From IMG/VR virus record IMGVR_UViG_2565956713_000001: a stretch of 64,000 nt of DNA. One strand, written 5' to 3'. The stretch is from a virus. Lineage: Duplodnaviria > Heunggongvirae > Uroviricota > Caudoviricetes. The position numbers were made by a program, and so were the translations under genes. Every line of letters begins with the position of its first letter. The stretch's first letter is position 1. The notes below the pieces were generated by a model. The model was not told the origin of the DNA, ran no database searches, and saw only the letters and a list, made by a program, of their open reading frames with translations. Positions 61,826 to 64,000 of this stretch are shown here, piece after piece.

Positions 61826-62246
61826 CCTGTGCGAGATTTATTACGTAACTTCTGCGGATTTGCTGAGTAACAGGGAAAATCCGATACAACGGGTTAATGA
61901 ACGAGTCGCCATGCGTAACCATGACGTTGAAATGCCACAGTCGCTCTCCTTTACCCATATATTCAGTGGGTATGTACAACCATTCACTGTTTTCGCCCTG
62001 TTCAGCCGACGTCAAACAACGTTGTTCGCCTTCAATCACTGTCGTCGGCTTCTGAACATCGCGGATCCAATATCTGACCGTTGCGCCGCGCAAAAACGGG
62101 AATTTAGACCGGTATTTGAACGGCACCCGGATGAAACCCGGTTTAATTTCCACATCACCAAGTTCTAAATGCGTGATGTCCTTGCGTTTTAGCAAATAGC
62201 GATCGGCTAAGGCTAACGCAAGAACGCATACACCCCAGCCAATCAT
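61803..62246 (-). CDS. lydB: LydB-like holin antagonist
   Basis: 147-aa ORF immediately downstream of the holin-like gene, overlapping stop/start. Confidence 0.45.
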   Translation of the reverse strand: MIGWGVCVLALALADRYLLKRKDITHLELGDVEIKPGFIRVPFKYRSKFPFLRGATVRYWIRDVQKPTTVIEGEQRCLTSAEQGENSEWLYIPTEYMGKGERLWHFNVMVTHGDSFINPLYRIFPVTQQIRRSYVINLAQDVSDDEK

Positions 62247-62572
62247 TTCCCGCCTCCCTTTTTCACCAAACTTGTAAGAACATTCAGAATGCTATCGATA
62301 TTCACTCGTTTCATCCCTGAAATCACCTCATGACCGTTATTGCTGGCTATCGTTACCATTAAGTACGTAATTGATAACTCCCAGCCCTCGTGTTGCCCCA
62401 ATAGGTACGCCACCGCGCCAGCTGTCACTGCAACAAAGATCTCCGTAACCAATCCCAACAAATTGCCAGACTGGCGACCGTCTCGGACATCCATCAGGAA
62501 CGTGCCTATCCCACCAATTACTGAAAGCAGGAGCGCAATAGCAACTGGAGCTAATTCCTGTGTGTCAAGCAC
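62243..62572 (-). CDS. lydA: LydA-like holin
   Basis: 109-aa protein with hydrophobic transmembrane segments and charged C-terminus (KKGGGK). Confidence 0.55.
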   Translation of the reverse strand: MLDTQELAPVAIALLLSVIGGIGTFLMDVRDGRQSGNLLGLVTEIFVAVTAGAVAYLLGQHEGWELSITYLMVTIASNNGHEVISGMKRVNIDSILNVLTSLVKKGGGK

Positions 62573-62646
62573 AAGTTCCCTCCTACGTTGTCAGGAGGTA
62601 ATGGTATGCAAAGTAACTTCTCAACCGGTTATGTTGCATAAGAGAC

Positions 62647-62910
62647 TTACCTATTCAACCGACTTTTGGAACCTTCAATAATAAGCCTGCTATTGGCGCT
62701 GAAAATAAGAACCATGCAGCTCTGAAGGCTTTCATTCATATCCTTATATTCCGCGAGATACATGCCAATAAAGCCAGCAAGTACGGCGGAAATACATTCG
62801 TCCAGCAATTTCTTGCATGAAGACTCGTAACGGTTTTCACATAGCCCACTCAAATACGAATACACCCCACCAAGAAGGGATAACATCACGATATGTACAT
62901 AAAATGTCAT
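62647..62910 (-). CDS. Small membrane protein upstream of lydA (holin-like)
   Basis: 87-aa ORF with N-terminal hydrophobic helix. Confidence 0.35.
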   Translation of the reverse strand: MTFYVHIVMLSLLGGVYSYLSGLCENRYESSCKKLLDECISAVLAGFIGMYLAEYKDMNESLQSCMVLIFSANSRLIIEGSKSRLNR

Positions 62911-63037
62911 TTTTTACCTATACAACAGTAAGTTGAACAACATTTGAGAACGGTATGCACTTTGTGATTTCCACACACACTGGTTTTGTTAATTAAAACC
63001 TGTGGCTTGCAATAAATAACGATAGTGGGCAAAAAAT

Positions 63038-63253
63038 ATGCTAATAGGCTATGTACGCATATAGACAAATGAACAAAACACAGCTATGCAGTGAAAAGCA
63101 CTTGAAAGCGCAGGATGTGAGCTAATTTTTGCGAATAAGGCGAGCAGCAAAAAGGCTGGGCACCCTGGGTTAAAAAAGGTTCTGCGTATGCTTTCCAGAG
63201 GTGATACCCTAGTCTCGGACTAGGGACAACATTTCGAGAACAGTTTTCATTAG
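63038..63253 (+). pseudogene. Degenerate 5' fragment of a cin-like serine invertase gene, inverted relative to intact cin
   Basis: Frame translates MLIGYVRI*TNEQNTAMQ*KALESAGCELIF...RGDTLV with in-frame stops, collinear with the intact Cin N-terminus MLIGYVRVSTNDQNTELQRNALECAGCELIF; DNA shares the block GCGCAGGATGTGA. Confidence 0.6.
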
Positions 63254-63345
63254 CGGTCAGCAGGCGCTAGATACATCGAATTGATGTGCCGCGCGATAAA
63301 TGTACCTATTCTATCATGATAAATTACACCGACGCGGCATTAGAA

Positions 63346-63918
63346 TTACAGCTCAGATTGAGTTTGGCGCTTCTCTACAGGATGATAACGATAAATCGTC
63401 GATACACCGATATCGTAAATAATTGCCAACTGTTTCCTGCTGTAGCCATTTTCGATCAACCTCGCTATTTGCTCATGTTGTTCTTTTGTCAACTTCGGGC
63501 GACGTCCGCCAATGCGTCCCTGTTCGCGTGCAGCTGCCAGTCCGGCCAGTGTTCTCTCAACAATTAATTCACGTTCCATTTCTGCTAAAGCACCCATGAC
63601 ATGAAAAAAGAAACGCCCCATGGGTGTTGATGTGTCAATACTGTCTGTCAGACTACGGAAATTAACACCTTTTTCCCGCAACTCCTCTATAAGCGTGATA
63701 AGGTGTTTCATACTTCTGCCCAGTCTGTCCAGCTTCCAGACAACCAGCGTATCTCCTTCTGATAGCGTTCTGAGCAGTTTTTTCAATCCCGGTCTGGCTG
63801 ATTTCGTTCCGCTGATTTTATCTTCAAAAATCAGTTCACATCCTGCGCACTCCAGCGCGTTACGCTGCAATTCTGTATTCTGGTCATTTGTTGATACGCG
63901 GACATAGCCAATAAGCAT
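63346..63918 (-). CDS. cin: Cin serine DNA invertase (Hin/Gin family)
   Basis: N-terminal catalytic-serine segment GYVRVSTNDQN, resolvase core, C-terminal helix-turn-helix; cix-like site just upstream. Confidence 0.85.
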   Translation of the reverse strand: MLIGYVRVSTNDQNTELQRNALECAGCELIFEDKISGTKSARPGLKKLLRTLSEGDTLVVWKLDRLGRSMKHLITLIEELREKGVNFRSLTDSIDTSTPMGRFFFHVMGALAEMERELIVERTLAGLAAAREQGRIGGRRPKLTKEQHEQIARLIENGYSRKQLAIIYDIGVSTIYRYHPVEKRQTQSEL

Positions 63919-63973
63919 GATGGATCCCCTGAATAAAAACCGGGGATGATGCCAGTTAGCCGTAATCTCTGCA

Positions 63974-63999
63974 TTTTCTTAAACGTTGGTTTGGGAGAA
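63974..63999. other. Candidate cix crossover site (26 bp, Hin/Gin-type dyad) upstream of cin
   Basis: TTTTCTTAAACG-TT-GGTTTGGGAGAA; right half matches hixL right half GGTTTTTGATAA at 9/12; position fits the boundary of the invertible C segment. Confidence 0.45.
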
Positions 64000-64000
64000 G

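Follow-up and report, generated by a model that had tools for sequence, protein, structure and literature searches.

A psi cin remnant beside a Min-type DNA invertase gene: very probably the 5′ stub of a P1-type cin left by cassette replacement

A 177-bp segment next to the tail-fibre invertase gene of a P1-like element is very probably psi cin, a non-functional 5′ stub of a P1-type cin gene that was left behind by cassette replacement. The segment occupies positions 63038-63214 on the + strand of a 64,000-nucleotide stretch of viral DNA (IMG/VR record IMGVR_UViG_2565956713_000001), the whole of which is referred to below as the window. It lies between a lydC-like holin gene on its left and an intact DNA invertase gene, read from the opposite strand, on its right. 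The features of this region are as follows.

62647-62910, − strand: lydC-like holin gene, which flanks the stub on the left as it does cin in P1, recognized from its open reading frame, from LydC in near-identical records and from Pfam Phage_holin_3_3
62911-63037, no strand: intergenic region between lydC and psi cin, homologous to the P1 cin promoter region and about 84% identical to P1 31545-31659
63038-63214, + strand: very probably psi cin, codons 1-59 of a P1-type cin with two stops and eight missense changes
63060-63074, + strand: predicted former Fis site I, now TATAGACAAATGAAC (TATCAACAAATGAAC in P1)
63092-63094, + strand: second in-frame stop, TGA at codon 19 (CGA, Arg19, in P1 cin)
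63108-63122, + strand: predicted Fis site II, GCGCAGGATGTGAGC, identical to P1 cin and containing the shared block GCGCAGGATGTGA
63207-63225, no strand: perfect 8-bp palindrome, CCCTAGTC-tcg-GACTAGGG, at the end of the cin homology
63215-63277, no strand: spacer, of which 63227-63277 is about 80% shared with a D6-type locus (L003)
63278-63345, − strand: 3′ flank native to the Min-type gene, which contains a long imperfect hairpin and, at 63340-63326, a weak site resembling a terminator
63346-63918, − strand: intact Min-type (Din family) DNA invertase gene, 190 amino acids, with Pfam Resolvase and HTH_7 domains
63974-63999, no strand: Din-type crossover site of 26 bp, TTTTCTTAAACG TT GGTTTGGGAGAA, compared with P1 cixL and Mu gix

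The reading frame of the stub begins at 63038 on the + strand (ATG CTA ATA GGC TAT GTA CGC ATA TAG ...) and translates as MLIGYVRI*TNEQNTAMQ*KALESAGCELIFANKASSKKAGHPGLKKVLRMLSRGDTLV. Residues 1-59 of Cin correspond to 63038-63214 in tblastn comparisons, which give E = 8e-31 and 83% identity for P1 Cin, and 68% identity for the neighbouring intact invertase. At the DNA level, the stub is identical to nucleotides 1-177 of P1 cin at 158 of 177 positions (89.3%). A megablast search of the region against phage records matches P1 with E = 1e-88, a value that excludes chance resemblance. An initial annotation of this DNA, which had likewise judged the similarity to an invertase gene too great to be accidental, had placed the start at 63038, in agreement with both the sequence and its translation. 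It had, however, extended the homology to 63253 (about 65 codons, about 215 bp), whereas the alignment ends at 63214 (59 codons, 177 bp). Neither shuffle-controlled local alignment nor tblastn detects similarity to any invertase 3′ of 63214, and thus the claimed end overshoots by about 40 bp. Of the several in-frame stops that had been counted, two lie within the homology, TAG at 63062-63064 (codon 9) and TGA at codon 19, whereas the third sits in non-homologous DNA. The Pfam Resolvase profile is represented in the stub by its positions 2-68 of 145 only, and HTH_7 is absent.

The homology to P1 continues upstream of the ATG. Specifically, window positions 62924-63214 align with P1 31545-31836 at 254 of 292 positions with one gap, and this P1 interval comprises the annotated cin promoter region and cin codons 1-59, beside lydC. 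The 114 bp upstream of the stub therefore share its homology to P1, and the orientation of the stub relative to lydC is that of cin in P1. Given 89% identity to P1 cin together with the shared upstream region and the orientation at lydC, sequence comparison identifies the stub as the positional orthologue of P1 cin, and not as a duplicate of its neighbour. The earlier proposal that the segment is a remnant of an ancestral invertase gene from a past recombination event is supported. The stub resembles the cin genes of P1, P7 and D6 in its position and orientation at lydC, in its upstream region, and in its DNA over codons 1-59. Unlike P1 cin, it ends after codon 59, contains two stops, has lost the Ser9 codon, carries a mutated site I, and has no cixL downstream.

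The degree of relatedness to P1 shifts sharply along 62063-63214, from 99.8% in lydB and lydA to 83-89% in lydC and the stub. The latter two constitute an old diverged patch within an otherwise P1-identical stretch.

The persistence of the cin promoter region (62924-63037) raises the question of whether the remnant is kept for a regulatory role, either in divergent control of lydC or through a transcript from the old cin promoter that would run antisense to the 3′ end of the invertase gene. In favor of such a role, a terminator scan yields no strong terminator on the + strand from the stub to the invertase gene (the only hairpins are weak and on the − strand), and the stub is kept in at least 148 plasmids. 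However, we consider this explanation very unlikely. The promoter annotated for cin is a predicted one taken from the P1 GenBank record. The counterpart of its −35 element in the window is TTTCCA (62968-62973), and that of its −10 element is TAAAAC (62994-62999), which has lost the final T of the P1 version, TAAAAT. The spacer between the two is one nucleotide shorter than in P1, and a promoter scan of the + strand of the lydC-psi cin region finds no sigma-70-like site. The sole match in an Rfam scan of 62500-64000 is a chance snoRNA (E = 0.65), and RNA folding is unremarkable on both strands (z = −1.8 each). A search for a C1 operator in the intergenic region, prompted by the annotation of P7, finds no site with five or fewer mismatches. 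Moreover, the stubs of other lineages end at different codons (59, 74 and 102), which means that neither the length nor the 3′ boundary is constant.

The differences between the stub and P1 cin are distributed as might be expected for a gene released from selection. The 19 substitutions fall at codon positions 1, 2 and 3 in the ratio 5/4/10 (9 of 19 at positions 1 and 2), and 10 of the 16 changed codons alter the amino acid, including the two that have become stops. Comparisons between functional genes instead give 4/0/10 for P1 versus P7 cin, and 1/0/16 for P1 versus D6 cin (1 of 17 at positions 1 and 2). This pattern indicates relaxed constraint, which followed an earlier period of divergence while the allele still worked. 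Among close relatives the stub has two variable sites in 177, which is not above its flanks, although this sample of 12 loci is too shallow to speak to neutrality. The uninterrupted open reading frame, complete catalytic domain, C-terminal helix-turn-helix and Ser9 codon of a functional serine recombinase are all lacking. Two stops, the loss of the Ser9 codon, and the absence of the entire DNA-binding domain and of over half of the catalytic domain leave the stub unable to make a recombinase.

The intact gene on the other side of the stub had been taken for cin and placed about 100 bp away. Its stop codon (63346) in fact lies 131 bp from the end of the stub, and its product is a Min-type paralogue with 76% amino acid identity to P1 Cin that is encoded in the opposite, Mu-like orientation. 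Its 5′ end faces the crossover site, the end of which lies 56 bp before the invertase ATG, and its reading direction is away from the invertible segment, as for gin beside the G segment of Mu. In P1, by comparison, it is the 3′ end of cin that abuts cixL. The arrangement differs from that of Mu in that Mu has no invertase pseudogene downstream of gin. The window ends in or right after the crossover site, and the invertible tail-fibre region thus falls outside it.

The features of a Din-family invertase system, namely its protein domains, an internal enhancer, a crossover site and evidence of activity, can all be recognized in the sequence for 63346-63918, whose own enhancer comprises predicted Fis sites at 63882-63896 and 63834-63848 (nt 23 and nt 71 of the gene). 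We compared this gene at 12 loci, the window with L002 and L006-L015, all of which encode the identical invertase except for the frameshifted L002; the identical protein is found on 579 contigs. The 28 variable nucleotide columns are all synonymous and are clustered in blocks, which indicates that the invertase alleles are a mosaic under strong purifying selection, with recombination as the probable source of the mosaic. Furthermore, the tail-fibre C-terminal segments that adjoin the invertase gene differ among ten loci. Variation that is only synonymous and the presence of different adjoining segments in different isolates identify the neighbour, at the level of sequence, as the functional invertase of a multi-segment system.

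Several different segment arrangements occur beside the invertase gene in related loci. In L002 (phage vB_EcoM-813R1, ON470617.2), a one-nucleotide deletion at the equivalent of window position 63604 splits the invertase gene, which accounts for the two open reading frames named 'Hin1' and 'Hin2' in that record. This split represents either a sequencing error or an inactivated invertase.

The P1-like plasmid p15B reportedly carries a "psi cin", a truncated 5′ part of cin beside min. According to the P1 GenBank record, P1 31570-31832 and nt 7147-7408 of p15B (X62121) are 89% identical with one gap, and a separate note in that record matches the cin enhancer region to p15B nt 6463-6533, in min. 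When p15B coordinates are converted to the window via one anchor, the corresponding window segments reproduce most of these values against P1: 89.4% with one gap for the stub segment (noted as 89%, one gap), 83.3% for the lydC segment (noted as 84%), and 99.8% for lydA/lydB (noted as 99%). The spacing of 945 bp from the stub to the invertase enhancer that follows from the p15B coordinates is likewise reproduced. For the min enhancer segment, identity to P1 is 78.9% in the window versus the 83% noted for p15B, and therefore the min allele of the window is not identical to that of p15B. This mismatch fits the synonymous mosaicism of min alleles described above.

Thus the window and p15B share a truncated 5′ invertase part that is highly similar to P1 cin (158 of 177 nucleotides here) and an adjoining min gene at the recorded p15B coordinates, in the geometry quoted in the P1 record, whereas they differ somewhat in the enhancer segment of min. 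On the strength of the cross-references in the P1 record and of the reported description of psi cin, the stub at 63038-63214 is very probably the psi cin of p15B (X62121). If so, the feature is already known as the psi cin of p15B-type P1-like plasmids. A full-text literature search for "psi cin" returned no match. The existence of the p15B study is confirmed through a paper that cites it (Sandmeier, Iida, Huebner, Hiestand-Nauer and Arber, 1991, Nucleic Acids Res 19:5831, PMID 1945872). A 2019 survey of P1-like plasmids (PMC6906374) describes, in the passages retrieved by term search, one element with a reverse-oriented Min-like invertase at 98.5% to p15B Min, and those passages contain no mention of the stub.

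The 5′ coding regions of these invertase genes also permit an evaluation of whether the stub retains an enhancer. We aligned seven invertase 5′ ends and scanned them with the classical degenerate Fis consensus, (G/T)NNYRNN(A/T)NNYRNN(C/A), which is weak when used alone, with about seven matches per kb per strand. All five intact genes (the cin genes of P1, P7 and D6, the min gene of the window, and Mu gin) show the consensus twice, at nt 23-37 and at nt 71-85, and the centres of the two sites are 48 bp from each other; in P1 cin the enhancer is embedded at nt 19-90. The stub matches at nt 71-85 only. The failure at nt 23-37 is due to a CA to AG change at the conserved −4/−3 (Y-R) positions of predicted site I, and the same two substitutions turn the catalytic Ser9 codon from TCA to TAG. 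The argument for enhancer loss draws on positional conservation in five working genes combined with loss in the stub.

A search for paired Fis sites had been proposed by the initial annotation. The exact DNA block that it had noticed in both copies, GCGCAGGATGTGA, is indeed present in the stub and in the intact gene, and corresponds to the core of Fis site II; the 48-bp spacing is likewise kept, but site I is lost. Of the two sites that make up a Din-family recombinational enhancer (sis), only the second matches, and the retention of an enhancer-like Fis function that had been suggested is unlikely and not supported. It is highly improbable, in our estimation, that the stub still serves the neighbouring invertase as a second, Fis-dependent recombinational enhancer. 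Its predicted site II is the same as in P1 cin, no indels interrupt the spacing of the sites, and it resides in cis at about 0.9 kb from the crossover site. Nevertheless, site I departs from a consensus that all five intact genes meet at that location, and the intact gene has a complete enhancer of its own, as judged by predicted Fis sites. In addition, the psi cin enhancer of p15B is said to have been inactive in the 1991 study, and to have been activated by two nucleotide substitutions. The difference of exactly two bases in site I is consistent with that reported experiment.

The notion that part of the adjacent intact gene was duplicated in inverted orientation to give the stub can be dismissed almost entirely. 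In its favor, the first codons and the block GCGCAGGATGTGA are common to two sequences that lie on opposite strands 131 bp apart. However, the identity between them amounts to only 119 of 177 nucleotides (67.2%), no more than that of any two Din paralogues (71.8% for P1 cin versus the neighbour over the same stretch), whereas the 89% match to P1 cin runs on into a cin promoter region that is absent from the neighbour. These identities and the upstream homology together refute a duplication.

The last eight cin-derived bases (63207-63214) form the left arm, CCCTAGTC, of a perfect palindrome; after the intervening tcg, the right arm, GACTAGGG (63218-63225), is its exact reverse complement. There are 34 perfect 8-bp hairpins of this kind in the 64-kb window, so the probability of a chance coincidence with the breakpoint is about 0.006. 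Base 63219 is polymorphic (A/G) in related loci, and hence 7 of the 12 loci compared match at only 7/8 positions of the palindrome. A deletion in a longer stub, accompanied by fold-back templated filler, is a plausible but unproven origin for the 59-codon version. Palindromic filler also offers a better explanation for an apparent match between "SD*GQ" and "DRLGR" past 63214. A candidate quasi-cix site at the breakpoint was rejected, as its resemblance by eye extends only to the level of a half-site.

Beyond the spacer, 63278-63345 is 86% identical to the 3′ flank of a min-like gene that resides in a chromosomal prophage beside hycI and has no psi cin next to it (E. coli 2014C-3075 chromosome, L004 1501-1582). 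This flank, together with its long imperfect hairpin (63288-63338), travels with min-like genes in chromosomal prophages, and it marks how far to the right the imported cassette extends on this side.

What is directly observed, namely the homology, the location and orientation of the stub, its pattern of decay and the lost Fis-site consensus, would be accounted for by a replacement scenario. An ancestor would have had the P1 layout, in which lydC is followed by a rightward-reading cin, cixL and the C segment. Everything rightwards from a point inside cin would then have been replaced by an incoming cassette that carried a Min-type Din-family invertase gene, in the opposite, Mu-like orientation, along with a multi-site invertible tail-fibre region. 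After this replacement, the stub would have decayed without selection, still located by lydC and behind the promoter region of cin.

The stub is not confined to the window. In PLSDB, where the search gives 431 hits, about 148 plasmids carry it at ≥95% identity, and about 275 further plasmids have an intact cin of the P1 type at 80-90%; among intact alleles the nearest is 90.1% identical to the stub. The junction together with the spacer is present in 172 of 5426 complete E. coli genomes, in most cases on a plasmid.

Other P1/D6-like elements carry cin stubs that are likewise 5′ remnants of cin, marking the left border of a tail-fibre and invertase module that was replaced or deleted, but that differ from the stub of the window in their breakpoints (aa 102 and aa 74) and lesions. 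The D6-type element NZ_CP086503.1 (L003 2188-2483) has a longer stub, derived from D6 cin, that covers Cin aa 1-102 with indels and is labelled by PGAP as a frameshifted, incomplete recombinase pseudogene. It adjoins the same spacer and invertase as in the window, and keeps both predicted Fis sites with a 2-bp deletion between them. In the P1-type elements NZ_CP034959.1 (L019, 2104-2304) and CP099043.1 (L020, approximately 2091-2295), a stub of aa 1-74 keeps both predicted Fis sites and is fused to what remains of a tail-fibre-assembly gene. The PLSDB gene table, which omits pseudogenes, lists no invertase gene beside these last two stubs.

In all three of these elements the 5′ part of the stub hardly differs from the intact cin carried by the corresponding backbone, with identity dropping sharply towards the 3′ end. 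In CP099043.1, for example, the match to P1 is 98 of 100 positions upstream and 60 of 60 over nt 1-60, and only 37 of 60 over nt 121-180. Such gradients suggest later homologous exchange, in which crossovers may have occurred inside the stub. The combination of a near-identical 5′ part and a decayed 3′ part in two of the stubs further suggests a left homology arm for the swapping of invertase and tail-fibre cassettes. In both lineages in which an active min adjoins, the predicted stub enhancer is broken by different lesions, a possible sign that a second enhancer in cis is selected against. Finally, with breakpoints at Cin aa 59, 74 and 102, it is conceivable, if rather doubtful, that the 5′ end of cin is a recurrent recombination boundary in P1/D6-like phage-plasmids and that these stubs are more than one-off debris.

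What is new here is only mildly so, and consists of the recurrent stubs with differing breakpoints, the identity gradients, and the palindrome at the breakpoint. The stub matters little beyond correct annotation. The p15B-type stub is left unannotated by current automatic annotation, and the intact neighbour, which is a Min-type paralogue oriented as in Mu, could be mislabelled as cin. Present in about 148 PLSDB plasmids, the stub can conveniently serve to mark the lineage of p15B-type elements. More broadly, the stub is best regarded as a molecular fossil, which very probably records that the host-range (tail-fibre and invertase) module of P1-like elements has been exchanged as a cassette, with one breakpoint inside cin.
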